Source: Giardia intestinalis
Lineage: Eukaryota
Length of the DNA: 64,000 bases
Assembly: GCA_000002435.2 (NCBI GenBank)
Contig: CM018793.1
Reading direction: 5' to 3' (one strand)
The notes under the pieces were generated by a model. That model did not search any database, was not told where the DNA came from, and was given only the letters and a program-made list of their open reading frames with translations. Below, one piece after another: positions 24,813 to 64,000 of this stretch (its first letter is position 1; every line of letters begins with the position of its first letter). The translations under genes and the position numbers were made by a program.

Positions 24813-25051
24813 GATAATTTATTTTAATTTCAGTAAGCCAACGGTGATTGCTACATGCCCCTCTGTTGCACAAATGCAGGCCGAAACAGTGTTCCTCGGG
24901 CAATGGACACGAAGAGCCCTTTTAATTTTAAAGTAATCTTCTGTGAGCACTCTGAATCATAGTCAAAGTGTGCTGGCATACAGATCCTACGAGATAAAGT
25001 GTGTTGAGAACCAATATTATTGATATTAGATTACTTAACTTAAAAAGCCGA

Positions 25052-25411
25052 ATGGAGGCCTTTGTTGATGTTCGAATGCTCGGTTTGTGGGCGTCGTCTA
25101 AGGCGGCTACATGTACTAACGAGATCTCAGAGTGCCAGGATGTCATGCACTTCCTGCTGGCAGCAGAGGAGCTACTGCTATCAGGAAAGAGTGAGCGGAA
25201 GGTTCTCGTGCACTTAGGTTGCGACGTCTACGAGCCTGGTCTTTGCGACTTAAATGGGTGGATAAAGATCCACCTCGGCGCAGGGATTGTGGTTGAGATG
25301 ACCTATGCAGAGGCCAAGAAGTATTTGACACGGCGGATTCGTGATCTTACCGATGAGATAGACGAACTTCATAAGACCATGGCTGATTGCGCAGCTTTAT
25401 GTTCTAATTGA
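25052..25411 (+). CDS. UXT: UXT / prefoldin alpha-type subunit-like protein
   Basis: The first ATG is at 25052, after cttaaaaagccga. VLVHLGCDVYEPGLCDLNGWIKIHLGAGIVVEMTYAEAKKYLTRRIRDLTDE parallels the human UXT block VDLGCNFFVD...[25 protein letters not shown] as I recall it. Confidence 0.55.
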   Translation: MEAFVDVRMLGLWASSKAATCTNEISECQDVMHFLLAAEELLLSGKSERKVLVHLGCDVYEPGLCDLNGWIKIHLGAGIVVEMTYAEAKKYLTRRIRDLTDEIDELHKTMADCAALCSN

Positions 25412-26042
25412 GACCTATCCTGTCTTATTCACTGTCTACACCTCAAGATAGCCACTTATCATTCTAGCAGCTAGAGTTCTCAACTCTCCAGTGTTATGTC
25501 CTTGTTGGATCGCCCATAACTATCTGGTGCGTTGTACCGTAGTTTTCGATGCACGTATGCAATGCAGTATCCGATTGTATCTCTATTCGGCAAACGTGAG
25601 ATGTACTTGGATTTACCCTTGAGGCAGAGTATTCATCTTATTAGACGCAACAGTGCTGCCGACCAAGCCACTGCTAGGCAGAGCACACGGCCTGTATCTG
25701 CTCATCTCGTGCTCTAGCCAGCCACCCTGCGTGAGCATCTGGAGACATGCCTGGACATATGTGTGGTATTCTGCGGTGTGTACGGTCCCGTGTCCACGCA
25801 GTAGGCCAGCCAGAGAGCGTGTGCAGGCACGCCATGTGGCACCACGTCCTTTGTGGAGCGCTGGAGGAATACACAGGTGAGGGTCTACCATCAAGATGCG
25901 GACACGTTGCTTCCTGACATGGAAGGTCAATGAGGCTATCCAGATGGCCCAGCTATGGTAGAAGGCTAGCAGATGTGATCGTATTGGCCATCAGCACTGT
26001 CACTAACACCAACATGCATGACTAATGGACCTAGCAGGGCCG

Positions 26043-26052
26043 CAATGTTGCT
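26043..26052 (+). promoter_or_regulatory. VSP initiator-type motif caATGttgct spanning the start codon
   Basis: The same 10-mer, caatgttgct, spans the ATG of the second VSP at 59356..59365. It matches the PyAatgTT initiator described for vsp genes. Confidence 0.55.
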
Positions 26053-27610
26053 ACTAGTTCTCTGCTTTTTGATGAGCGCCCTCGCCGCGCAACGCACTAA
26101 ACAACCCACATCCGACTGCGGAGTCGCAAACTGCGCCCAGTGCAACGCGGACGGCAGGACGTGTGATCAGTGCAGCGAGGGGTACAACCTCAACCAGGAG
26201 AAGACCCAGTGCACCAAGGCGTGCGCGGTCGCAAACTGCGCCCAGTGCAACGCGGACGGCAGGACGTGTGATCAGTGCAGCGAGGGGTACAACCTCAACC
26301 AGGAGAAGACCCAGTGCACCAAGGCGTGCGCGGTCGCAAACTGCGCCCAGTGCAACGCGGACGGCAGGACGTGTGATCAGTGCAGCGAGGGGTACAACCT
26401 CAACCAGGAGAAGACCCAGTGCACCAAGGCGTGCGCGGTCGCAAACTGCGCCCAGTGCAACGCGGACGGCAGGACGTGTGATCAGTGCAGCGAGGGGTAC
26501 AACCTCAACCAGGAGAAGACCCAGTGCACCAAGGCGTGCGCGGTCGCAAACTGCGCCCAGTGCAACGCGGACGGCAGGACGTGTGATCAGTGCAGCGAGG
26601 GGTACAACCTCAACCAGGAGAAGACCCAGTGCACCAAGAACCCAGAAGCGCGATGCAATACTCCCAACTGTAAGACCTGTGACAGCCCCAAAACAGACAG
26701 TGAAATCTGCACTGAATGTAATAATGGCAACTACCTCACCCCGACAAAGCAGTGCACGCAGAGCTGCGGAACAATAGGAAGCTACTACAACGGAGACAAA
26801 GTGTGCGAGCCCTGTGATCCTAGCTGTGCTGCGTGCATCACAAAGGGACCAGCGAAGTGCACGCTGTGTCCTCCCGGGAAGAGGCTCCAGTACACAGATG
26901 AAGGAGCCACTCAGAACGGCGGATCCTGCGTAGATGAGTGCAAGCCTGAAGGAGGAGCTAGCGGATGCGAGACCTGCGGAGCCACCATCGGAGGGACAAA
27001 GTATTGCTCGAAGTGCAGCACATCCACGGAGGTCCCCGTCAACGGGGTCTGTACAGCAGACAATGCCCGCGCAGCTGCGTGCAAGGTGAAAGATGGCAAG
27101 GGAGGGTGCACTACGTGTGAGAGTGGATACTTCCTCCAAGACGGCGGTTGCTACAAACTCGGTAGACAGCCCGGTGAGCAGATATGCACAGCAGCCAGTA
27201 GCGCTGGTAAGTGCGAGACGTGCGCCAATAGTCTTCAGCCCAATAATGGAGCATGCCCCTCGTGTCACTCGACCTGTAAGACATGTCGTGATGCTAATTC
27301 TGCAAATGCTTGTACAACGTGTGCAGCTGGGTACTATATGGTCGGATCAGCAGCTGGACCATGCACTTCGTGTGACAGCAACAGTGGAAGTGTCAAGGGA
27401 GTTGCTGGCTGCATGAGCTGCGCTCCTCCATCGTCTAGTACTGGCTCCGTCCTTTGCTACCTCATGAACGGTGACAGTGCCGGCGGAAGCACGAACAAGA
27501 GCGGCCTTAGCACAGGCGCCATCGCAGGCATTTCTGTCGCAGTCATCGTTGTCGTGGGGGGTCTTGTCGGCTTCCTCTGCTGGTGGTTCCTCTGCAGGGG
27601 CAAGGCGTAG
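26045..27610 (+). CDS. vsp: variant-specific surface protein (VSP) with five 35-aa tandem repeats
   Basis: Signal peptide MLLLVLCFLMSALAA, many CXXC motifs, a GGCY motif (QDGGCYKLG), and the conserved C-terminus GLSTGAIAGISVAVIVVVGGLVGFLCWWFLCRGKA. In-frame upstream ATGs at 26018/26014 are possible, but the initiator motif favours 26045. Confidence 0.95.
   Translation: MLLLVLCFLMSALAAQRTKQPTSDCGVANCAQCNADGRTCDQCSEGYNLNQEKTQCTKACAVANCAQCNADGRTCDQCSEGYNLNQEKTQCTKACAVANCAQCNADGRTCDQCSEGYNLNQEKTQCTKACAVANCAQCNADGRTCDQCSEGYNLNQEKTQCTKACAVANCAQCNADGRTCDQCSEGYNLNQEKTQCTKNPEARCNTPNCKTCDSPKTDSEICTECNNGNYLTPTKQCTQSCGTIGSYYNGDKVCEPCDPSCAACITKGPAKCTLCPPGKRLQYTDEGATQNGGSCVDECKPEGGASGCETCGATIGGTKYCSKCSTSTEVPVNGVCTADNARAAACKVKDGKGGCTTCESGYFLQDGGCYKLGRQPGEQICTAASSAGKCETCANSLQPNNGACPSCHSTCKTCRDANSANACTTCAAGYYMVGSAAGPCTSCDSNSGSVKGVAGCMSCAPPSSSTGSVLCYLMNGDSAGGSTNKSGLSTGAIAGISVAVIVVVGGLVGFLCWWFLCRGKA
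26123..26638 (+). repeat. perfect tandem repeat, 105-bp unit x 4.9, in frame inside the VSP
   Basis: Unit gtcgcaaactgcgcccagtgcaacgcggacggcaggacgtgtgatcagtgcagcgaggggtacaacctcaaccaggagaagacccagtgcaccaaggcgtgcgcg starts at 26123, 26228, 26333, 26438 and 26543. I saw no mismatch between copies. It encodes (A)CAVANCAQCNADGRTCDQCSEGYNLNQEKTQCTK. Confidence 0.95.
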
Positions 27611-27616
27611 ATGTGT

Positions 27617-27631
27617 ACTTAGGTAGTAAAC
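27617..27631 (+). terminator. VSP 3' motif plus poly(A) signal ACTTAGGTAGTAAAC
   Basis: It begins 7 nt after the stop. The identical 15-mer follows the other two VSP copies and contains the AGTAAAC poly(A) signal. Confidence 0.8.
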
Positions 27632-28664
27632 GCGTCATTGTGTGTGGCTTATATAAATGTGCTGCTGGGGCTATCTGAGCGTGGCCCAGAGGTCGTGCGG
27701 GTGAGCCCGCTCCTTCCTGGCCAGTCCAGGAACGATGGCTGGTTTTGGATGATATAATAGGGATCTCCCTTCACTTGTATACCAGGAGTCTTTTGCGTCC
27801 CTCAGTTGTTCCGCAGAGGTGTGCTCAGTTCGAGTGTGCGCGTCGCTCAGCCCAGGATTCAACTTACTTGTCCATCTGCATTGTCCACCATTGGTGCCAC
27901 TTCTTGGTCTACCGCTCTGATGCCGGAGGGTCCCAGTAGTTGATGACCCTGGACTGACGCCTCGACAGACCGAAGCATCAGCCCAAGTGTGCTGTGCAGT
28001 GCAGATGGACCAGCCCACACGTCACTGAGCCAGACGCACTGCACAGGGTGAGCGTCGACACGGTCTCGTACTGGATGACGGACCACCTGCAAGAGCGCAC
28101 TGCGATCCATGAGCAGAGGACCATACTTCTCCCCCGATACCAACGCATAGGAGCTGTCCGCCGGCATCCACGAACGCGTACTATGACTCCAAGATAGAGG
28201 CGCACGGGGAGCATACCCTCCGATCATACTCGGAACCGATGATCGCTTCATGGGGAGACAAAGAGGTGCCCCGAGGAACGGGATAGGCACCCGAGGTCGT
28301 GGCGTGCGATCTTCGTCACGGAGCACCAGGGCCACGTGGAGGCCAGGCTGCTGTGACCGACGGTAGCCCCGAGACAACAGGTGCTCACTAGATATCAGAC
28401 GATGGTTGACCCCGACGGGCCAGAGGATGGGAGGAATCTAGAGGCACCGCGAGGAGCGGCAGGTCCCGGGGGAGACAGGATATAGGAGTTCTCCCGCCGG
28501 GATCGAGGGCATCCGACTCTCGGATTTCTGATCTCAGCTATTGTATGAGCGAGAGGCTTGCCCAGGGCGGCAATGGCTCGCATGAAAAGACCACTCCGGT
28601 AGCAGGCGACAACCCCGCCTCATTAAAATTTACTCTTCCCTAACCTCGTCTCTCTAGATATCTG

Positions 28665-51524: not shown

Positions 51525-52458
51525 TTTATTTCCCGGGCCAGAGCATAGCTTATTAAGCCATCATTCGATTGGGTACACATATGAACAATGAGTTCCTAGT
51601 GTTCATATACTTTGGCTGAGACTTTCCTCTTCAGATACGATTACAAAAGTCTAAGATCACCTTTCTAACTATTATCTGAACAAGTTTCTTGGTAAGAAGC
51701 ATTGTTCAGATTCACACCCCAATACTTTATATCAATAATTTAGAAAGTTTCTGTAGACTGCTTGTATTATGCTGATATGTCTTTGAATAACTTGCCAACC
51801 ATATCTGCATTATCTACAAGTAAAAAGGAGAGTGCCGTATATTGCTGACTGGTGATGCATCGCACAGAAAGCATACCACAAGACAGTTTAGATAATAATT
51901 CACTCCACCTTAGTTATTTTCATCGTCGGCTCTTTGGGACTGACTAATGGCTGCCTCTGTCGTCTCTTGGTGTCCGTCCAGTTCGTGGCCTCAGAGATAC
52001 TTGAGATCTCCGGGTAGCTGGCGGTTCTTCCTTTCCAATCGCTTTGGAGACAGACTCTCGGAGCCTGTTAACTAGCCCCATCGGGTGCTCACTTTGCTGC
52101 CATGCCAAATCTCTCAAGATGTTTCTGGACATAGAATGGAGAAGTCATCTGCTCCATGTGTAATTGAGAGCATCCTATCCTTGTATCTTTGCTGCTTCCT
52201 CGTCGTAGTCAGTATGGCTATTGAATGATGCACACGTCAACTGCCTTTCACTTGCCGATAATCCAGATATCCAGCTGTTGAGTATGCGCCAGCTCCCCTA
52301 CAGCTAAGGATTGTGTGAGTGACCATGTCTGGCTTTTAGTCCTTTCTTTGTGCAGCCTTGGGGACCCTCCTCCATGGTCAAGGATTGAGCAGTCTATAAT
52401 GGCAGGATTGCGCTCGCCAGGGGCCCTTTTCCTGTCTCCTGGTGATCTAATAGTCTTT

Positions 52459-54588
52459 TTAACAGCAGCACTCCAACCTTTGTAGTACTTCGTTCGAGAG
52501 GAGGGAGACTATCTCGTGGCATCCCCATAGCTTGGCCATACAAAGAGCATCTCCTCCCGTACTGTCTCTCAGACTCTTCTCTCTCACGAGGAGCTTTACA
52601 CAGTCAATACTACCAATTTTCATAGCAAACATAAGAGCGGTCCATCCCGTTTTCTCCTTCATGCCAGCTTCCTTGTCTACGAGTAGCCTAACACAATCTA
52701 CGTGACGATTCTGCGCAGCCCACATGAGAGCGGTCATCCCGTCAGTCCTCTGCATACCACCCTCCAGCTCCACAAGTAATTTGACGCAGTCTGTGCGGCC
52801 GAGCTCTGCAGCGCACATGAGAGCGGTCCATCCATTGCCATCTTGCATGCGGCTTTCCTTTTTCATGAGTAGCTTAACACAGTCTGTATAACCACGACCT
52901 GCTGCAGCCATGAGAGCTGTAGTTCCGTTATTATCTTGCATACATATCTCCTTCCTTAGTAAACTCCTGGCGCAGTTCGAGTAGCCATTACCTACTGTGG
53001 CCATAAGAGCCGTTCCTCCATTGTTATCTCTCATACCTCCTTCCCTTTCCAGCAAAAGCTCGAGACAGTCTATGTGACCAGTTCTTGCAGCCCATATGAG
53101 GGCCGTCCACCCGCTATTATCTCTTATGCCCCCTTCCTTCTCCAGTAGCAGCCCCACAAGTTCTGTGTGACCGTGTATCGCTGCTCTCATCAGGGCGGTC
53201 CCTCCGCATATCTTCCATCTGTCCACATGTGTGCATCCCTTCATCTGCATGCCTCCCTGGAGCGGTATGAGGGTCTTCACTGCCTCCACGTCGTTTCTGT
53301 CAACGGCCCTCATGAGGTCGGTGGAGTCGTCCTCTTCGAGATGCTCCTCCTCTGTGTCCTCTATATTGTCTGTCTCGTCTGTCGTATCTATTGCATCTAC
53401 TGTGTCTGTCGTATCTGTCGTATCCGCTGTATCCGTTGCATTCCACGCGTCCCCCATGCCTATCTTCATCCATATCTCCTTTACCTTCTCAAGCGTCTTG
53501 GAGGTCTCACCAAACTGCTCCTTAGGGATATCTGCCCCTGCGGATTTAGCAGCAAGCTCCTTCTCAAGAGATAGGATCTTGTTGTTGGCATCATTCAGAG
53601 CAGCCTCCAAAGATGCGCATCTGTTCCTCAGTGCTTTATCTTTGGCTTCCTGTTCATCAGGAGGGCCGTTGAGCATCTGAAGCAGACGGACAAGCCCTCT
53701 GGCTGTCGGCCTCCTCTCTGGATCCAGCACGAATATCCGCTCCAGAACACTCTTTATGAAGCCGTCGGTGATGCCACTCAGATCGGGCCTCCACCCATCG
53801 ACGAAGACATCCTCTGGTTCTCTGCCCCCCAAGAAGTCCGGCTTCCTCAGGGTGGCGAGCTCGTATGCTATGGCCCCAATGCTCCAGATGTTGGACGCGG
53901 GAGTTATGATACCGCGGAGGAGCGTCTCGGGGGCCATGTATGCGGGGTCGCCGGTCTTCGTAGCCCAGCTCGACATGCCCATGCAGAGTTCGAAATTCGC
54001 AAGAACAATGTGCCTCCTATTTTCTGTGAATAAAATATTGTCAGGCTTGAAGATAACACCAGGAAACAGGCTGCCGTGGACACCATTGATGGGATCATGC
54101 AAGTAGATAAGGCAATTAGCAAGGTCTCTTACAAGGGAAAGTACCAACCTCTTAGGAATAGGCTTATGAGTTTCTCTGTAATTAGTGATCAACTGCTGAA
54201 GGTCTCCGCAGCGGCGGTCCATGATAATAAAAATCGTATTGCGACTCTTAATTATCTTGCCGCAGCTGAGAACATCCGGATAAGAGGTGTTTGGAAGAGC
54301 GACTAGCTTGAGTTTGGCAGCATCTACACTATACTGGTCTGGATCATCAGGCCGGATCTCCTTCGCGGCAAGGTGAGGGTATCCTTTAAGAGAGTAGATA
54401 GTACTGTAGGCATCCTTGCTGAGCACGTCACCCAGGCACCTGCGCAGCTTCTCGGGACTGAACATGGGGACGTCATCTGTATCCACCAGCCCCGCAAAAC
54501 CACTAGCTGACCCCTCAGTAGGACTCCTTAGAGTGCTATGTGCGGCGGATGAGGTAAGGGGGTAAGACCGGCAGTCAACAGCCATCAT
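52459..54588 (-). CDS. NEK-family kinase-like protein with C-terminal ankyrin repeats (predicted pseudokinase)
   Basis: The first ATG (MMAVDC) is at 54588, preceded by aaaattaaaagta (the track start 54684 is GTG). The kinase fold spans ~nt 53671..54447 (LAAKEI, DPAYMAPE, SNIWSIGAIAYEL). HRD is replaced by G-V-I (GVIFKPDN) and DFG by NFE. A coiled coil, a DT-rich acidic linker and at least seven GGTALM/GWTALM ankyrin repeats follow. Confidence 0.85.
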   Translation of the reverse strand: MMAVDCRSYPLTSSAAHSTLRSPTEGSASGFAGLVDTDDVPMFSPEKLRRCLGDVLSKDAYSTIYSLKGYPHLAAKEIRPDDPDQYSVDAAKLKLVALPNTSYPDVLSCGKIIKSRNTIFIIMDRRCGDLQQLITNYRETHKPIPKRLVLSLVRDLANCLIYLHDPINGVHGSLFPGVIFKPDNILFTENRRHIVLANFELCMGMSSWATKTGDPAYMAPETLLRGIITPASNIWSIGAIAYELATLRKPDFLGGREPEDVFVDGWRPDLSGITDGFIKSVLERIFVLDPERRPTARGLVRLLQMLNGPPDEQEAKDKALRNRCASLEAALNDANNKILSLEKELAAKSAGADIPKEQFGETSKTLEKVKEIWMKIGMGDAWNATDTADTTDTTDTVDAIDTTDETDNIEDTEEEHLEEDDSTDLMRAVDRNDVEAVKTLIPLQGGMQMKGCTHVDRWKICGGTALMRAAIHGHTELVGLLLEKEGGIRDNSGWTALIWAARTGHIDCLELLLEREGGMRDNNGGTALMATVGNGYSNCARSLLRKEICMQDNNGTTALMAAAGRGYTDCVKLLMKKESRMQDGNGWTALMCAAELGRTDCVKLLVELEGGMQRTDGMTALMWAAQNRHVDCVRLLVDKEAGMKEKTGWTALMFAMKIGSIDCVKLLVREKSLRDSTGGDALCMAKLWGCHEIVSLLSNEVLQRLECCC

Positions 54589-57500
54589 TACTTTTAATTT
54601 TACAGTACAGTTTACTCTCCGTTTCACTGGGTAAATCTCCCATGCGAGCCAGCGCCGCCCTGGGCAGGTCTCTTGCTTACTCACTAACCGAAATCCAAAT
54701 CCAGACTTCGCAAGTCAAACGTCGTCCACTTCAGCGGGAGAAGAAGCCCAAATGGGGAAGTCGGTGGTCCAACGCCTAGCCCTCTGCGTCCCCAGTAGAC
54801 AACAAACCCGCGGCTGCTCCCACGAGTGAGCCGCTGAGGAAGGCCTGCGGGGACTCGAAGAAAAGAGTCTAGAGAGCATCCAATAGAATGAGCAGGAGGG
54901 CCAGGAGACAGGAACAAGAGAGCTCTAGCATCTTCCTCTAGCGAACCTCCCTGTCATGGAGAAGGGTGTATGGTGGCTGAGTGTGGGGGTTGTAAACCTA
55001 GAGCAATCGCCGGGTCGATGGCTTCAGCATGGCTTTCAGCAAGATGTAGCAGGGAATCCGAACCAGCTGAGCATTGGACCAGGTCCTGGATAGGAGCTAA
55101 GGGCTCCTGTGCACGGCTGGGCTGCTCTCTAGATGGGACAGGGCACGGTGAGCTGGACGGGTGTGATACTATAAGGTATCTATAGTTGTATCGATACAAC
55201 TAGTAGGCCCACACTGGACTCTGAGAAGTACACTGCTAGACAGGCTGGAGAAGCCTGAGGGGCGATAGCACCATCTTGTTATCGCTATGCAGTGCTCTGT
55301 GGGCATGCATTCAAGACATCATCCCCTGGTAGCCGGGGAGGGGACAGAGTCAGGCGGTAGTGAGCATGCCCATCAGAATGCCTCTAGGTACTGACCAGCC
55401 ACTCCCTAGAAGCGCAGATGTCTCGGCTAGGTTGCATCACATCCAGAGCAAAAGAGGAAGCTGTACTGTCCTATTTGTTTCTCAGAACAATGTGCGAATA
55501 GAAGGCGGCCCAGCGACTGATACTCTGCACCGTCCTCTTCATCCACAGCCTGAGCAGCCAGATGCCAGGCTCAATATGAAGACGGAGGCTGCGAAGAGTA
55601 AACTCACCACGGGGCCGATTGTCTGACACCAAAAAATCCGAAAGGACGACAGTAGCTGCTGTCTCCTTGAAGAGTGCATCACACACAGTATCGACCTTGG
55701 TCTCCTAGACGAACACTCTAGAACATTCTACACTAGCCCTGACTTCTGAGGCATTAAACCCTATAACTAGCACAGAGTGAGGCAACAGCATGCAGACGGT
55801 GCGTTATCTTCATAGATGTGTACTACAGCTTCCGACTGCATATGGATGTACCGAGATGGGCAGTTTGACCGGCTTACATTGGCGACTTGTCCGTCACCGT
55901 GTTTGCTGCGATGAGAAGCTGCGTCTGCCCGGCAGACTGAGCATAGATTACAGCAGCTTCTCTGCTGATGCATGTATGGCCATGCGCCGCCCTAGTAGGT
56001 GGCGTAAATACCATAATGCCTAACCTGTCTGTTGTTAGCGGAAAATAGCAGTTAGTCGTGTTAGAGATGCCTCTAAGTAAGCCTCTAGTCTTTGTGCCTA
56101 CTCCTCTACCAATTATAGTGACGACCGTATATTCAGAAAGACTACGGAACTCTCCACCGTCTCTCAAGGAGACTAACGGCTCATGCATGGGCTAGCGACG
56201 GAGGCCCATGAACTACCTACTACGAGCCTAGCTTACTGAGCAGTCTGGATCACAGTGCACTTGATAAGCATCTATGCACTCATTTGGATGCTCACTACTA
56301 ATACTGACAAGACTACAAGGAGGTTTGCTTTTGGTCACACTCCCCTCATAATGCTTAGCCCTTGGCACCACATTTCAACGAAGGAAGATGTTAGGTAGGT
56401 ACGCAAAAGGCTATTTGTGCACGGTGGTTCCTGGAGAGCAAGTTTGCACAAAGACTGTAAAGGCGACTAGCAGATCAGTGAGGTAAGCCTGACGTTATAG
56501 AGACAAGCTGTAGATCCGGATTGCAATGGGGACGCCTGTGGTGTCTCTCTGGCCTTCGAGTGTAGAAAAATCGCGAGGTCTGCAGACAGGTGAAGCTAGT
56601 TTTTGATTTATGCGCTTATAGCAGTGTAATATTTATTGGGACCTGTTTCGTCTGAGGCCGAAGACGTTTATCTTTTCTCCGTATACAAGCAAGGATCTAC
56701 TGTAGAGATATACTGTGCAGGCCAGTACCAATCGACGTGGTTGCTATTAGCAGGTGTCTCACTTGCACCTTCTCATAACGGGTAGCCATCAGCAGCGTCC
56801 TCGGCCCACGTGACATTCTAGATGCATCTCTGCCTTTGACCAAAGATTGACACACGCGTTGTGTAGTTTAGATTGCTCATCAGCCAGAGTGGCGTGGCTA
56901 CCCCTTATCCTCTACTTGTCTATCTCGTACAACCATTGCTGATGGCCTTTCCAGATTAGCATGCAAATGCTCTTATCGGTCCCACAAAGGCATACGTCAT
57001 ACAAATAATCACTACAGTCTAGGGTCCTGTCTACCAAAGAAAAGGCCAACCAGTTTACCACGTAGGCATTCATTGTGCATCTCATATAGTCTGGCAAGTC
57101 TTGTGCTCCCCAACATTCCCTCGCAAGCCCTCAGCTAAAGCCCGTATGCATATCGTTATTGACAAGCGCCTTAGCTTCATCTGGCCACTTAGGGCGTTAG
57201 ACCCTTTGCCTTGTACAATGAGTATACTCGGCGTGGGAGGTATACAATCAGCATCGGCCTTTTCTGCTCGTTGTCCGTATGATACTGTTGTTGCTTCTTG
57301 ATTCAACCAGCAACCTAGTTAATGGCTCAAGAGTAGGTGATAGCCCGCCAACGGGCAGTCAATAGTGGCCATAACGCATACCTTCACCAAGGCACAGCCT
57401 CCCTGAGCAGAGCACAAAAGTGGACCCTGCCATTCTGCGGCCCTACTATTCTCTTGAATAACAGGATCAGAGCAGCTCATGGTTAGTATTAGCTGTCTTC

Positions 57501-59357
57501 GGGTCTCCACCTGTCCTTATTGTCTGAGGTATGCTTGACTCCGTAGATTCGAAAGATGCTGTACTGTACTCGTACCTGCAAGCCTCAGCCAAGCAAGGCT
57601 ACCATCTTGAAGGCTTGGCAGTGATGAGCCACACAGTCGGCGGGATCTGCAGAGAGCATTCATCCCAATGAGCCTTTTACTTGTCGTATACAGGTTGTGG
57701 CTGTGACCTCATAGGCGCAGGACTTTCTGGAATAACCGGTCAACTACAGAGTCTGTCCACTCATGTAAAGCCACCTGATAGAGGGCGATATCAATCTCGT
57801 CACTCGTCTACAACATACACCAGTCGAATCTCACAGATGAACAAGGGCCACCCAGCCCGCAGCACTAGACATTAACAGATATCCTTCACGACAAAGGGGG
57901 TGAGCGACTAGTAGACCACAGCAGTCGCCTGCCCATTGAAGATCTTCCAGTCACTGACCTAGGTCAGCTTCCTACAAGATCTTGAGAGCTTTATTAGAGG
58001 TGCATGCTTATAGAATCCCCAACTCAAGGTGCATGCTGTCGGACCCTGCTATTTTTCACATCAGCTCGTAGACATCGGTTCTTTTGATCTCTAGTGGGGT
58101 CACGGGGGATCGCAAGATATGGTTCCCTCAGTAAGGCTTTATCTGACTCCTGTAGCTATATGACAGGAGGATACCGGTCTTCTATGGATTATTTAACGCA
58201 TGCTAAGGTGCACCAGTACAAGTCCTACAGTGTGGCATGATTCGTGAGTCAAAAGGTAGGATGCTTGGGCTGATTGGCGTGTCTCCTCGGGACCAAATAC
58301 AGCTAGGACCAAAGGTCATGAACGAATGCTATTCGATTCCCTTATCAGCAGATGGGGGTCAACTGCTCTAGTATCCACAAGAGGCTATAGAGGGTACTGG
58401 ACCAGGCATCCGGCCAATTGCTGGCAAATCAACACAACCTCCTTGGATCTCCATTCTTTCCTCACAGGCATCTACATGTAGGAAGCTCTGAGGACCTAGA
58501 GCCCTACACTAACAGGCTCAAGGTATTGCACTCCTAGGTGCTTCCATTAGTGGTGGTAGTGATAGCACCAGGATGATCCAGAAGGGGGATAGAAATCCTG
58601 CCCCGTTAGCTCAAGAAATGGCACAGTTTGAGCAGGGTTTCCTCCTTGTTTAAATTTGGGAGTACTAGCCTACGCCCTCTGACCATCTGACGCCTTATCA
58701 TGCGATGGGGAATCTTAATAGTATCCACTACAAAAAGCCAGAAATAGCACCATGCACACCCAACAAACCAGAGCGTCTCATAGGCTAATCTACACTGATT
58801 CGCACTTCCACGGACCCTAGCGACCACTGTAACCGTCTCTCGGGATCTTGCAAGGGACTGTCCTTGAGCGCGATTCCTCCATGACAACCAGAAGTCGCAG
58901 ACATAGTCCAAAGGGATGAGAATACTATAGAGGCGGAGAAGAGATCATCTGCGCACGGGGGTCCGCAGGGGCCCGACCCGCACAGGGAAGGCGTAAGAGG
59001 CCAATTCCCCAGGAATGCAGAGACATTAAGAGAGGAACCAGCAGTGGGCCCATAACACAGGGAGGTCACCCGGGCCGCCCCCTGATTGGCCACAGGGTAG
59101 AGGAGCAGCATGCGCGCGGGACAGCATTGCTACTTATTTTTGAATTTTCTGTTTCCCTGCATGTTGTGCAGGGGTCCGCGGTGGGTGCTAGACTATAGTT
59201 AGTAGATGCTTTCGGCATTAACAACTATCTCTTGTACAACAATATTATCAAAAAGGGATTTCTTTAAGCTGGCAGCATAGCAATAACCGAATGGAGCTTT
59301 TTAGCTTTGGGTATCTTTGCTAGTAGGATTCTTGATAGTGGATTAAGAAGAATCTCA
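54589..59357. other. ORF-poor tract (4.8 kb) between the NEK gene and the VSP
   Basis: All six frames are interrupted. The longest ORF in the track here is 108 aa, none has a recognisable motif, and I saw no internal tandem repeat. The rest of the window is mostly coding. Confidence 0.7.
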
Positions 59358-59365
59358 ATGTTGCT
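59356..59365 (+). promoter_or_regulatory. VSP initiator-type motif caATGttgct spanning the start codon
   Basis: The 10-mer is identical to the one at 26043..26052. Confidence 0.55.
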
Positions 59366-60617
59366 GATAGCTTTCTATCTTGGGCTGAGCGCCCTTGCGG
59401 CACAATGTAAGCAAGTACAAAATTGTGCAGCAGGTAAGTGTGAGATGGTTGGCGGCACTGAAATTTGTACAGAATGCGCGACAAATGGAAACGTTCCTAT
59501 CAATGGGGAGTGTACACCAAAAGGTAATGCGGCTGATAAATGCAAGAAAGTTAACGGTAATGAGCTTGTTGACGATAAGACATGTGGAAAATGTGAGAAC
59601 ACATACTTCATGTACAAGGGTGGATGCTATCAACTTGGCAGTGATGTCGCACTCCTCATCTGCAACGATCAAGCTGCTTCACCTGGAGGGCGTAATGCTG
59701 TTGCTGGCGTTTGCACAGAATGTAATGCTACTGGGGGATTCTTCAAAAGCCCAGAGGCGGCCGACACGACAGATTCCTGCATATCGTGCAGTGATACAAC
59801 TGGAGTGCAGGTTAATGGCGGTAACACGTATAAAGGTATCGAGAATTGTGTAGTATGTGCAGCTCCAGAAAGAGGAACAGGTAACGAAAATAAGATTGCT
59901 GCATGTGAGTCATGTCTTGAAGGATTCTTCGTTGCATCTAACAAGGCAGTATGCACACGTTGTACTGATAATGATAATTGCGCTAAGTGTGATGCAGGCG
60001 AAAACAAGTGCACAAAATGTAAGGCAACAGCCAGCAAACCATATCTAAAAAAGGGCGAAACCGAGGACTCTAATACATGTGTTAATAGTAACGAATGTAC
60101 TACTGATAAAACTTACTTCACTGATGATACTGACGACCCTACTCATGGAAAGATGTGCAAGAAATGCTCAGAAGGGATAGCAGACTGTAAGAAATGCGCT
60201 CCATCATCACCTTCTGCTTTAGCTACAGTATCCGCAATTGTGTGCACAGAATGTACAACACAGACCAACAAACCCAATGTTGCCGGAACAGGGTGCTTCA
60301 CATGCTCCGTAGACGGATGTAGTAACTGTAGCGAGAATGACGTATGTGAAAAGTGTGGACCTAACAAGAAGGTGAGCCCCGGGAGGAAGTCATGCGTGGA
60401 TAGCTGTCCCGAGAACTCCATTGACGATAACTCTGTCTGTACATGCAGCAGTGGGTACAGCCCTGACAGCAGTGGGGCCTCCTGTGTGTCCACTGGCAGT
60501 AATAGGAGCGGGCTCTCCACGGGGGCCATAGCGGGGATCTCCGTCGCAGTCATCGTCGTCGTCGGGGGTCTCATAGGGTTCCTCTGCTGGTGGTTCGTGT
60601 GTAGGGGGAAGGCGTGA
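59358..60617 (+). CDS. vsp: variant-specific surface protein (VSP), left copy of the inverted pair
   Basis: The first ATG is at 59358 (the track start 59307 is TTG). Signal peptide MLLIAFYLGLSALAA, many CXXC motifs, a GGCY motif (YKGGCYQLG), and the C-terminus GLSTGAIAGISVAVIVVVGGLIGFLCWWFVCRGKA. Confidence 0.95.
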   Translation: MLLIAFYLGLSALAAQCKQVQNCAAGKCEMVGGTEICTECATNGNVPINGECTPKGNAADKCKKVNGNELVDDKTCGKCENTYFMYKGGCYQLGSDVALLICNDQAASPGGRNAVAGVCTECNATGGFFKSPEAADTTDSCISCSDTTGVQVNGGNTYKGIENCVVCAAPERGTGNENKIAACESCLEGFFVASNKAVCTRCTDNDNCAKCDAGENKCTKCKATASKPYLKKGETEDSNTCVNSNECTTDKTYFTDDTDDPTHGKMCKKCSEGIADCKKCAPSSPSALATVSAIVCTECTTQTNKPNVAGTGCFTCSVDGCSNCSENDVCEKCGPNKKVSPGRKSCVDSCPENSIDDNSVCTCSSGYSPDSSGASCVSTGSNRSGLSTGAIAGISVAVIVVVGGLIGFLCWWFVCRGKA

Positions 60618-60631
60618 CTTAGGTAGTAAAC
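60617..60631 (+). terminator. VSP 3' motif plus poly(A) signal ACTTAGGTAGTAAAC
   Basis: It overlaps the last base of the TGA stop and is identical to 27617..27631. Confidence 0.8.
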
Positions 60632-61074
60632 ACGTCACTGTATATGGCTTATTACGCTATTCTGCCGGGGCTATCTGAGGATCGCCCAGAGGTCGTGCGA
60701 GTGATCCTCGCTCAAGCTCTGACCAGTCTAAGGACGAGGGTTGGTCATGAATAACATGACGGAGAGCCCTCTCCAGTGACACATCCAGAATCTGGGCATT
60801 CCTCGCCGCTCCATGAGGATATGCTCTGTCTGGATGTCCATGCCGATCTATCTTGGATTCAGGCCTTCTCGCAGGCTCTCTACTCTACCCGTGGCGCCTC
60901 TCCATGGTCTTCCTTCGTGGTGGGTGAAGCTCCGGTCGCTGTTTTTTAGATGCTCCTGTCTGTCAGGGGCTGCCACCGGGCTCTCCGCTGGCTGGGCCCT
61001 CGGTGTCCGTCCGGCTGTGGCCCGGGCAGCGCTCTACGGTCGCGGTCACTTGGGTCTCAGTGGGTTCGGATGGT

Positions 61075-61135
61075 GGGGAGGCGAGGGGAGTTAGGGCGGT
61101 GAGGCCGGAGGGGCTGGAGGGGCTGGAGGGGCTGA
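61075..61135 (+). repeat. G-run tract with a 9-bp GGGGCTGGA tandem at the inner end of the left arm
   Basis: Six runs of at least 3 G lie in ggggaggcgaggggagttagggcggtgaggccggaggggctggaggggctggaggggctga. It is mirrored as a C-run tract at 62737..62797. Confidence 0.8.
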
Positions 61136-61147
61136 GGTTGGTGGTGG

Positions 61148-62724
61148 TTGTATGCGCCTCTGGTCCCTCGATAGACTGGGGTGATCGCAGCTGTGGTGAC
61201 TGGGGGCTGTCCATCTGTGACTCACCCCTCTGTGTGCTCGTGGTCTGTGAGTGCCTCCACCCAGACAACCCTCAGGAGCCGTGCACACCAGGACAGAGAG
61301 GGTGACAGAGGAGAGTCAAGCAGCCCTGCCACGAGGGTGCACAGCAGCCAGCCTGGGCTGCAGGGCCCGCTCGAGCGATGGTAGTGACAGACGACTCCCT
61401 CTGACAGCAGCCCTGGTGACTGGCACTGGTCTGCTTTCGAGGCTGAGTGACAGTGTGCACAGATGGACATGAGTGCAGGAGGACCATCCACACACGGACA
61501 GACTGTGCCCCCATACGAGAGCGCCAGGCAACCACCCGAGCACCCGAGAGGCAGCAACAGACACGGGCACTAGAGATCCCCAGCCAGACAGCTGCCATGC
61601 TCATCCATAGGGGCATCAGAGGACCAGGGGAGTCACCCTCACAATCAGGGTATGATAGGAAGCCAGAGGACTCAAACACTACAGCATAGCAGATCCAAGG
61701 GAGGCACACTCCAGCAGGCGAGCAGTGGCAGAGCCCTGATAGCTGCCAGCCCCCCATGACACCCAGGCAGGCACCAGGCTCACCGAAGGCTCTGCTGGCC
61801 TCCACCGATGATCCGAGGGGGCAGCAACCAGAGGAGTGGGGAGGCCTTCGGACACCACAAGAGGCCCGGCTGTCCAGCAGGCGATGGAGCACAGGTGGCC
61901 TCTGAGCACCATACAGGCACAGAGCCGACCATCAGAGTGATGCCCGATCAGAGACGACCACGAGCACCCTCCACCGCACTCTGAGGGGCTGTCGATCATC
62001 CCACTGCCTCTCATAGCAGACCTCCTTGAGAGCAGTGCAGTGGGTCCCAGCTCATGCACGCCTCCCCTGGCATAGGACACCCCGGCTCTCCCCGAGGGGT
62101 CATCAGAGCCACGAGAGGTGTCAAGGTCCTGGTAGATCACACCGGGAACTCCCCGAGGGCACAGCAACTGAGATATGAGTGACCCTCAGTGTGCTCCTCT
62201 CTGATGGTAGAGCATCTTGAGACCAAGGGGGTCACCTCTGCCTACGGACGACACACAGCACTCCACAACAAGGACCCACTAGGAGCAGCACAGCTGACCA
62301 CGGGGACAGTGCAGTCACCAGTGCCCCACCGTGCCAGTTTTCTGGGCCATCATACTATAGGCATGAGAGAACCCCATCCCATCCACAGGGTCATCCATGC
62401 CCCTGCTGGCCCGAGGTGAACTCCCCGTCGAGGCGCTGGACAGGGCATGCCAGGGGCTCAGCAGACCCACAGAGAGAATCAGCGAGTAGCAGGAGGGGCT
62501 GCGATGGCCTGCCTCAGCCCTCACGTACCAGCCAGACAGAGAGACAGTACTGCCTGAGGCATGCAGGGGCCAAGGGAGGCGATCAGTCAGGGGACACGAC
62601 ACGATCGTCGGTGCCTGTGTCTCGGGAGTGCAACGAAGGCTGGAGATCAGACACAGCCACCTTAGCAAACAGAGTGGGGACAACCCACCACCCCAATAGC
62701 CCACCGAACCCAGAGGCACATACA
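61148..62724. other. spacer of the inverted VSP pair (1,577 bp, GC-rich, strand-skewed)
   Basis: It lies between the two identical arms. The first ~110 nt on each side are still recognisably but imperfectly homologous. I could support no credible gene. Confidence 0.75.
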
Positions 62725-63240
62725 ACACCACCAACCTCAGCCCCTCCAGCCCCTCCAGCCCCTCCGGCCTCACCGCCCTAACTCCCCTCGCCTCCCCACC
62801 ATCCGAACCCACTGAGACCCAAGTGACCGCGACCGTAGAGCGCTGCCCGGGCCACAGCCGGACGGACACCGAGGGCCCAGCCAGCGGAGAGCCCGGTGGC
62901 AGCCCCTGACAGACAGGAGCATCTAAAAAACAGCGACCGGAGCTTCACCCACCACGAAGGAAGACCATGGAGAGGCGCCACGGGTAGAGTAGAGAGCCTG
63001 CGAGAAGGCCTGAATCCAAGATAGATCGGCATGGACATCCAGACAGAGCATATCCTCATGGAGCGGCGAGGAATGCCCAGATTCTGGATGTGTCACTGGA
63101 GAGGGCTCTCCGTCATGTTATTCATGACCAACCCTCGTCCTTAGACTGGTCAGAGCTTGAGCGAGGATCACTCGCACGACCTCTGGGCGATCCTCAGATA
63201 GCCCCGGCAGAATAGCGTAATAAGCCATATACAGTGACGT

Positions 63241-63255
63241 GTTTACTACCTAAGT
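63241..63255 (-). terminator. VSP 3' motif plus poly(A) signal ACTTAGGTAGTAAAC
   Basis: The reverse complement of gtttactacctaagt is acttaggtagtaaac, mirroring 60617..60631. Confidence 0.8.
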
Positions 63256-64000
63256 CACGCCTTCCCCCTACACACGAACCACCAGCAGAGGAACCCTATG
63301 AGACCCCCGACGACGACGATGACTGCGACGGAGATCCCCGCTATGGCCCCCGTGGAGAGCCCGCTCCTATTACTGCCAGTGGACACACAGGAGGCCCCAC
63401 TGCTGTCAGGGCTGTACCCACTGCTGCATGTACAGACAGAGTTATCGTCAATGGAGTTCTCGGGACAGCTATCCACGCATGACTTCCTCCCGGGGCTCAC
63501 CTTCTTGTTAGGTCCACACTTTTCACATACGTCATTCTCGCTACAGTTACTACATCCGTCTACGGAGCATGTGAAGCACCCTGTTCCGGCAACATTGGGT
63601 TTGTTGGTCTGTGTTGTACATTCTGTGCACACAATTGCGGATACTGTAGCTAAAGCAGAAGGTGATGATGGAGCGCATTTCTTACAGTCTGCTATCCCTT
63701 CTGAGCATTTCTTGCACATCTTTCCATGAGTAGGGTCGTCAGTATCATCAGTGAAGTAAGTTTTATCAGTAGTACATTCGTTACTATTAACACATGTATT
63801 AGAGTCCTCGGTTTCGCCCTTTTTTAGATATGGTTTGCTGGCTGTTGCCTTACATTTTGTGCACTTGTTTTCGCCTGCATCACACTTAGCGCAATTATCA
63901 TTATCAGTACAACGTGTGCATACTGCCTTGTTAGATGCAACGAAGAATCCTTCAAGACATGACTCACATGCAGCAATCTTATTTTCGTTACCTGTTCCTC
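63255..64000 (-). CDS. vsp: variant-specific surface protein (VSP), right copy of the inverted pair, 5' part outside the window
   Basis: The minus-strand frame is open to the window edge. The visible ~248 codons are identical to codons of the left copy (…GTGNENKIAACESC…CWWFVCRGKA). The track lists only the part from the internal Met (63255..63719). Confidence 0.9.
   Translation of the reverse strand, partial: GTGNENKIAACESCLEGFFVASNKAVCTRCTDNDNCAKCDAGENKCTKCKATASKPYLKKGETEDSNTCVNSNECTTDKTYFTDDTDDPTHGKMCKKCSEGIADCKKCAPSSPSALATVSAIVCTECTTQTNKPNVAGTGCFTCSVDGCSNCSENDVCEKCGPNKKVSPGRKSCVDSCPENSIDDNSVCTCSSGYSPDSSGASCVSTGSNRSGLSTGAIAGISVAVIVVVGGLIGFLCWWFVCRGKA

Follow-up and report, generated by a model that had tools for sequence, protein, structure and literature searches.

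Among the retrotransposons described from Giardia, GilD is characterised, as far as the summary in PMC2861651 conveys the original account, by dead copies, microhomology deletions and a position in gene-poor regions next to genes for variant-specific surface proteins (VSPs; Arkhipova & Morrison, 2001). The surroundings of VSP genes have been described as gene-poor and richer in allelic variation, with remnants of reverse transcriptase (RT) lying between head-to-head VSP pairs, in a genome where intergenic regions average 477 bp (Xu et al., 2020; PMC7000408). GilM and GilT (Genie 1), which belong to the broad class of single-ORF (open reading frame), LINE-like (long interspersed nuclear element) retrotransposons with an RT, form subtelomeric head-to-tail arrays with intact ORFs, GilM measuring 5,474 bp and occurring in at least nine copies (PMC7000408); GilM, GilT, and GilD have all been credited with unusually long 3′ untranslated regions (UTRs; review, PMC5537684). 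Here we analyse a stretch of 64,000 nt from Giardia intestinalis WB (chromosome 5; contig CM018793.1, assembly GCA_000002435.2), hereafter the window, in which a tract of 4.8 kb (4769 nt, 54589–59357) separates the start of a NEK kinase gene (54588, minus strand) from the ATG of a VSP gene at 59358. This tract is probably what WB retains of a dead, LINE-like retrotransposon unit that is of the GilD type, lacks long terminal repeats (non-LTR), and immediately precedes the VSP gene GL50803_14331 in the same orientation.

WB itself does not show the RT-encoding, non-LTR origin of the unit, which is visible in relatives of the tract, namely its A2 orthologue and an A1 paralogue. In A2, the orthologue is DH contig AHGT01000063 (L022); it aligns with window positions 54969–63291 and 54633–54937, and two gut-metagenome contigs (L023 and L024) are 99.7–99.9% identical to it. 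In global alignment, WB and A2 are 92% identical in the tract, 95% in the VSP gene, and 84% downstream of it, compared with WB/DH identities elsewhere of 98–100% in core genes and about 96% in core intergenic DNA. Between window positions 54937 and 54969, the A2 DNA holds an additional 3094 nt (L022 8322–11415) that have no counterpart in WB. Read on the plus strand of the window, the insert shows weak C2H2 zinc-finger motifs and, 3′ of them, an RT remnant that is split over three frames and recognised by the RVT_1 profile at E = 1.9e-6 (profile positions 139–203). A frameshift-corrected pseudo-protein of 270 aa derived from it is 48% identical, over 100% coverage and at E = 1.7e-61, to P0095, the P15 protein annotated as 'Reverse transcriptase/endonuclease, putative', whose residues 1–365 align to the A2 DNA in three frames. 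P0095 itself has a clear RVT_1 domain (89 bits), finds its nearest solved relatives in LINE-1 ORF2p and R2, and, being intact, reads AYADD where the A2 remnant reads AYTDG. A P15 RT fragment is the sole protein-database match of the relatives' RT, and none is named GilM or GilT.

The same arrangement recurs at a second locus. Contig L029, assembled from an A1 run whose core contig (L010) is 100% identical to WB, matches 55015–57984 at 70% and continues, colinear and on the same strand, into a homologue of the A2 insert that comprises the zinc-finger region and, at E = 6.5e-11 to the P15 RT, the N-terminal part of the RT. L029 has an internal deletion of its own, which has taken away about 0.95 kb of the RT. 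The zinc-finger/RT segment and the tract are thus joined colinearly and on one strand both at WB/DH and at L029; as these two loci share no more than 70% identity, the association must date back as far as the copies. It is this finding, in the A2 orthologue and the A1 paralogue alike, that lends support to the second of the alternatives offered by the original prediction, which was made from the letters of the window alone and had proposed a dead non-LTR retroelement.

The age of the association also indicates the direction of change. Since the combination of zinc-finger/RT segment and tract is as old as the 30% divergence from L029, the difference between WB and A2 is a deletion in WB rather than an insertion in A2, and the WB state is the derived one, the zinc-finger/RT piece having been lost by a deletion at a TATG microhomology. 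The junction of this deletion of about 3.1 kb, the one junction examined for microhomology, lies at 54968–54981 (plus strand), where the WB sequence has TATG in common with both DH breakpoints, as part of an imperfect repeat of 13 nt (TATGRTRGCWGAG); the A1 contigs L013–L021 carry the same deletion. The loss of the zinc-finger/RT piece accounts for the fact that no YxDD motif can be seen by eye in WB. Three deletion states are thereby found among the copies: WB lacks 3.1 kb, L029 about 0.95 kb, and A2 neither. That the copies are dead is evident from these differing deletions, from stop-to-stop runs of at most 114 codons in WB, and from the distribution of the A2 RT over three frames. Copies of Genie 2 may carry flanking inverted repeats; in A2, an inverted repeat around the zinc-finger/RT part is represented by a weak match of 47 nt at 77% only.

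Further copies show that the tract belongs to a dispersed multi-copy family, with at least four additional lineages from A1 runs or from WB itself and at least five in all. Besides L029, these include L030/L031, which cover 55868–57615 at 69–71%, L032–L035, which cover 56833–59173 at 68% and then match the 5′ end of a VSP, and L028, which covers 56529–59380 at 69.5% before entering a different VSP of 506 aa; L029, L030/L031, L032–L035, and L028 are 67–70% identical to the tract and to one another. WB itself also has the L030/L031 paralogue: the predicted ORF product of these contigs, P0087, falls into one cluster with the WB protein GL50803_107308 at an identity of at least 90%. A closer relative, L012 (SRR21529620, 1–6164), covers 54969–59172 with 85.7% identity to WB and 86.7% to DH, begins exactly at the WB deletion junction (54969), and runs into another, different VSP of at least 585 aa. 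Its 60-nt patches of 100% identity to WB form a mosaic that suggests gene conversion, and L012 may be a third haplotype or copy. The WB/A2 copy, L012, L028, and L032–L035 all adjoin a VSP, and the one next to L012, L028, and L032 is different in each case. Across all of these copies, the DNA upstream of the VSP can be aligned and the VSP coding regions cannot.

Taken together, these comparisons suggest the following history, which we reconstruct from the alignments. The ancestral unit would have run, on the plus strand of the window, from a left-end segment through an N-terminal C2H2 zinc-finger region and an RT to a post-RT part of about 4.2 kb, the latter consisting of a decayed C-terminal domain and a long 3′ region and ending at a conserved T-rich/hairpin block, some 185 nt short of the VSP ATG. 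In WB, the left-end segment corresponds to 54633–54968 (plus strand; 93% identical to DH L022 11719–11416 and to L023/L024) and includes a 26-nt motif described below, and the body 3′ of the RT corresponds to 54969–59172 (plus strand), in which no ORF is left and which presumably holds the decayed C-terminal ORF part followed by the long 3′ region. In A1, the zinc-finger/RT part was removed by a deletion of about 3.1 kb involving microhomology, and what remained would be unrecognisable sequence under neutral decay, leaving 4.8 kb without an ORF. Such relic DNA might persist because VSP neighbourhoods tolerate non-coding DNA, and ectopic recombination probably makes use of it as a substrate.

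In its internal, gene-poor position next to VSP genes, its dead copies with stops, frameshifts, and different deletions, its microhomology at a deletion junction, its LINE-type RT remnant in orthologue and paralogue, and its long post-RT region, the unit resembles GilD and the annotated RT pseudogenes beside VSP pairs of WB, and we infer that the family is GilD itself. It differs from them in that the WB tract copy has lost its RT entirely, and would therefore escape RT-based annotation, and in the length of the reconstructed unit, about 7.5 kb. With GilM and GilT the unit shares the broad class and the long 3′ region; in contrast to their arrays, the tract is internal, solitary, and dead. Non-LTR elements of the R2/NeSL type carry N-terminal C2H2 zinc fingers. 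The tract unit likewise has zinc-finger motifs followed by RT on one strand; unlike these elements, it shows no recognisable CCHC or restriction-like endonuclease after the RT in a PDB sequence search. A string of the form C-x2-C-x13-[W/R]-x4-C in ORF 54970–55185 stands at the place expected of the CCHC and is suggestive only. The locus is a worked example of three published points, namely, the gene-poor neighbourhoods of VSPs, the presence of GilD relics within them, and the decay of such relics by microhomology deletion. As such, the tract is ordinary for Giardia and leaves the current understanding of Giardia biology unchanged; the kind of element is already known, and what may be new here is limited to an RT-less WB copy and two small conserved motifs.

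Several observations weigh against an element of this kind. The likeness to GilD is one to its published description, of which every defining feature tested was found. At about 7.5 kb, the reconstructed unit is longer than GilM. Neither a poly(A) tail nor a target-site duplication was identified for the tract unit, the A2 sequence 3′ of the RT has no match in the PDB, and the WB tract shows no trace of RT, endonuclease, or zinc finger at any sensitivity reached. Moreover, homology among the copies extends, more weakly and with indels, across the promoter and initiator of the VSP as far as its signal-peptide codons, and because of this, the copies may have multiplied as segmental duplications of relic plus VSP and not by retrotransposition, and a large share of the 4.2 kb may be VSP flank.

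There is a rival reading, to which we give a minor though appreciable chance, in which the 4.2 kb is an 'extended non-coding upstream region' of a VSP subfamily that was segmentally duplicated, the zinc finger and RT having arrived by a separate, earlier insertion at the distal end of the flank. It draws on the passage of copy homology through the promoter into the VSP 5′ coding region, on the adjacency to a VSP of all copies that reach the right-hand end, on the unusual length of the unit for a Giardia LINE, and on the extended non-coding region that is typical upstream of VSPs (Adam et al., 2010; PMC2996952). A co-duplicated flank is less easily reconciled with the colinearity of zinc finger, RT, and tract on the same strand at the two loci of 70% identity, and with the fact that it is the tract, and not the VSP coding region, that remains alignable between copies. 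Furthermore, the BLAST homology of L012 and L032–L035 breaks at 59172/59173, directly after a conserved hairpin, as expected of the 3′ end of an element, and a comparable tract is missing from the other VSP of the window. On balance, we infer that the whole 4.2 kb belonged to the retrotransposon unit. The upstream DNA treated by Adam et al. (2010; PMC2996952) as undefined non-coding sequence would here consist mostly of a multi-copy unit linked to RT remnants.

Within WB, the tract carries no coding signal. The original prediction had described it as free of ORFs above 108 aa and of tandem structure, and both descriptions hold: ORFs that begin with a start codon reach 108 aa at most (58785–59111, minus strand), and TRF reports two trivial two-copy repeats only. 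Across all frames, stop-to-stop runs have a maximum of 114 codons, where shuffles of the same 4769 nt give 138 ± 27 (5–95%: 104–192); the tract matches random sequence in its scarcity of ORFs and does not surpass it. The period-3 Fourier signal stays at the null level of 0.3–2.0 throughout, versus 2–8 in the flanking genes, GC content is 0.500, TpA is not depleted (0.98), and CpG (0.57) is more depleted than in genes. The emphasis that had been placed on frequent stops, especially TAG and CTAG, is justified only in part. Both are enriched relative to the rest of the window (TAG 22.4 vs. 12.7 and CTAG 7.5 vs. 3.0 per kb), but the density of all stops together, 0.0476, is what random sequence would give (3/64), and the CTAG excess was dropped as a special signal, as it follows from trinucleotide composition and disappears upon correction (z = 0.86, no over-representation). 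The tract is without coding constraint. A perfect 20-nt palindrome (TAGTTGTATCGATACAACTA) lies inside it at 55183–55202.

The contrast that had been drawn with spacers of 18–330 nt elsewhere in the window does not stand, as a map of gaps between ORFs of at least 150 aa contains further ORF-free intervals of 922, 934, 1205, and about 1050 nt, the last counted after discounting a TTG-start ORF of 172 aa, and two of these flank the VSP at 26018–27610.

The first alternative of the original prediction, that the tract is decayed cellular coding sequence—a pseudogene or pseudogenes of NEK, protein 21.1, high-cysteine membrane protein (HCMP), VSP, or another gene—has become highly improbable. The position between NEK and VSP in a fast-evolving region is what one would look for in such a relic, and at the left edge of the tract there is a 48-aa ORF (MRASAALG...) with a 62-aa counterpart at 28395–28583. 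However, residual domain similarity is absent throughout: a six-frame Pfam scan of the tract gave no match at E ≤ 1, including to VSP (PF03302), Ank, Pkinase, and RVT_1, tblastn of 82 NEK/ankyrin proteins gave nothing below E = 0.04, and CXXC density is at the level of shuffles, in agreement with the earlier failure to see any RT, ankyrin, kinase, or CXXC remnant by eye. The lack of a period-3 signal speaks against this reading as well, as does the nature of the database matches, all of which are spurious short ORFs on homologous non-coding copies.

Those short ORFs provided access to the relatives of the tract. A word-indexed search of 5.8 billion proteins, using all stop-free tract pieces of at least 45 aa joined into a single query of 2910 aa, gave no match and proved to be a false negative. 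A full-HMMER representative search with the twelve longest pieces (1125 aa joined) returned nine short ORF products at 42–100% identity; these are spurious calls on homologous non-coding DNA, and they served as the handles through which the related loci were retrieved. The protein collection does contain an identical product of 71 aa and several that are 74–87% identical, which were missed by the word-indexed search; long concatenated queries seem to swamp its candidate list. For genome annotation, the lesson is that 4.8 kb without any protein or RNA-family match could be explained only via comparison of haplotypes and paralogues, the diagnostic RT piece having been deleted in the A1 lineage and having survived in A2.

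Independent assemblies place the existence of the tract beyond reasonable dispute. Logan contigs from at least nine A1 SRA runs match 53839–57845 at 99.9–100% (shorter ones cover 53922–56394 and 54633–55639), and because these independent A1 assemblies carry it at such identity, the tract is real and stable in A1. Its conservation in other isolates, which the original prediction had left in question, extends from the A1 runs to A2 at about 92%. The notion of an assembly artefact or of foreign DNA in the WB assembly, to which nothing lends itself beyond the random-like ORF statistics, is refuted by the recurrence of the same sequence at 99.9–100% in assemblies from many SRA runs and by diverged orthologues in DH and in metagenomes; its probability is negligible.

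The most conserved piece of the tract is a T-rich block of 41 nt (ACTTATTTTTGAATTTTCTGTTTCCCTGCATGTTGTGCAGG; 59132–59172, plus strand) that ends in a hairpin of 7–8 bp (CCCTGCA-TGT-TGCAGGG) and always lies about 190–225 nt upstream of the VSP ATG. Its first 29 nt (59132–59160) recur exactly, as a pattern with two R/Y positions, in all nine of the nine loci that reach it, against a background identity of 67–70%; a metagenome scan for these 29 nt gave no match. The hairpin is predicted in four copies, with fold z-scores of −0.9 to −1.8, which are not significant, and with almost no covariation. The block may be either the 3′ end of the element or an upstream element of the VSP subfamily, and it constitutes a concrete candidate for studies of VSP expression.

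This conservation leaves a small opening for a non-coding RNA or regulatory role. In principle, the tract could give rise to a functional long non-coding RNA or exert epigenetic control over the VSP pair, a reading compatible with a retroelement origin and attractive in that the 41-nt block was kept in all copies while the rest drifted to 67–70%; small RNAs have also been traced to another Giardia retroposon family, according to a reference cited in PMC1950533. We regard such a function for the tract as very unlikely, considering that Rfam 15 covariance models run over 52000–64000 on both strands gave no match at E ≤ 1, that only four 60-nt windows reach at least 82% identity among paralogues (mean about 63%), that the A1/A2 divergence of about 8% is roughly twice that of core intergenic DNA and suggests no constraint, and that the hairpin has neither a significant fold nor appreciable covariation. 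Somewhat less remote, and still doubtful, is a partial co-option of the dead element, with the block acting as a cis-element of the VSP subfamily (e.g., a promoter-distal control or transcript-processing signal), or with the whole relic nucleating a chromatin or small-RNA state of VSP silencing or switching.

At its left edge, the tract shares a second small motif with another part of the window. Dispersed similarity between the tract and the rest of the window is limited to 63 nt (shared with 28522–28584), and within it a 26-nt motif (TGCCCAGGGCGGCnnTGGCTCGCATG) occurs at 54641–54666 (minus strand) and 28559–28584 (plus strand), identical at 24 of 24 specified bases where no occurrence is expected by chance. 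Both copies sit within 63–100 nt of homology, at the border of VSP-flanking ORF-free DNA and 53–81 nt upstream of the ATG of an ordinary gene (NEK in one case, a 184-aa ORF in the other), and both start a short ORF, MRA[S/I]AALG..., that points away from the adjacent gene. In A2, the element carries a diverged version of the motif at its left end, and close to the RT there is a weak inverted counterpart. The short NEK 5′ flank at 54589–54632 is not part of what WB shares with the A2 unit; DH contig 63 is homologous from 54633 onward.

The neighbourhood of this edge has been rearranged. In A2 (L022 11720–17413), the left end of the element adjoins genes for an EGF-like protein of 193 aa, a Peptidase_C1 (cathepsin), and a DEAD helicase, and not NEK, and in DH, the contig with the NEK locus (contig 43) has at its end, 5′ of NEK, another left-end copy that is about 70% identical. 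Inside NEK, WB/DH identity falls at about 53720–53750 from 98–100% to 70–90% and remains low through the N-terminus, giving 88% overall at the protein level; A1 contigs from the left end at 53750–53766, and those from the right begin at 53839–53922, with about 70 nt unassembled. The interval 53720–53840 of NEK may accordingly be a recombination boundary, a site of allelic heterozygosity, or both. These contig comparisons show an A1/A2 rearrangement at the element border, and the relics thus coincide with rearrangement points, in line with the analysis of synteny breaks between P15 and WB. Both the different genes adjoining the A2 element and the A1/A2 identity break inside the neighbouring NEK mark the relics as such points.

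The genes on either side are well defined, and the identities originally assigned to them, as well as the inverted repeat noted at the VSP, were confirmed. The left neighbour (52459–54588, minus strand) encodes a NEK kinase of 709 aa with Pkinase and Ank domains, and its protein is 100% identical to the NEK of Giardia intestinalis WB (ATCC 50803; P0001). The right neighbour (59358–60617, plus strand) encodes a VSP of 419 aa that matches PF03302, ends in CRGKA, and corresponds to GL50803_14331/d14331, the left member of an identical tail-to-tail pair. Its proximal 5′ flank (59173–59357, plus strand) can be aligned, with indels, among VSP-linked copies and bears the initiator CAatgTT at 59356–59362, in keeping with the consensus PyAatgTT (Adam et al., 2010; PMC2996952).

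The visible left arm of the VSP inverted repeat (59872–61146) is 1275 nt long and 100% complementary to the right arm (62726–64000), which is cut by the end of the window along with the second ORF. From the stop codon to the end of the arm there are 529 nt, and the stop codons of the two ORFs are separated by 2637 nt. Identical tail-to-tail VSP pairs have been defined as convergent ORFs, 2.4–3.2 kb apart, whose 3′ flanks are identical over 318–559 nt (Adam et al., 2010; Xu et al., 2020), and the VSP at 59358–60617 and its partner agree with this definition. The pair is catalogued: Table 5 of Adam et al. (2010; PMC2996952) gives vsp107 a 3′ divergence of 529 nt and a distance of 2638, and Table 2 of Xu et al. 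(2020; PMC7000408) gives GL50803_d14331/14331 as 419 aa, 2637 bp apart, on chromosome 5. It resembles the inverted pairs of Adam et al. (2010) in its initiator and its long non-coding 5′ region as well.

Seven long, independent A1 short-read contigs (L013–L019) all end exactly at 57845, where no repeat or change of identity is visible. The inverted-repeat arm of the VSP may have its outer limit here and would in that case span 57846–61146, or the position could reflect an allelic structural difference; an arm reaching into the tract would explain the shared contig ends.

The spacer of the VSP pair (60618–63254) has a GC content of 0.61–0.64 and no period-3 signal, is poor in CpG and TpA, and contains mirrored repeats of GGCTGGAGG (3.6 units) at 61103–61134 and 62738–62769; only its central 1579 nt (61147–62725) are unique. 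The metagenome A2 contig L023 crosses this spacer in the orientation opposite to that of the DH contig L022, which could be due to a flip-flop inversion or to assembly ambiguity.

The second VSP of the window (26018–27610, within the region 24813–28664) has ORF-free DNA on both sides, about 1.2 kb of it upstream and some 1.05 kb downstream. It contains five to six tandem repeats of 105 nt, each encoding a Cys-rich unit of 35 aa, and its last 120 nt, together with the 91 nt after the stop codon, are 79–81% identical to the corresponding stretches of the VSP at 59358–60617.

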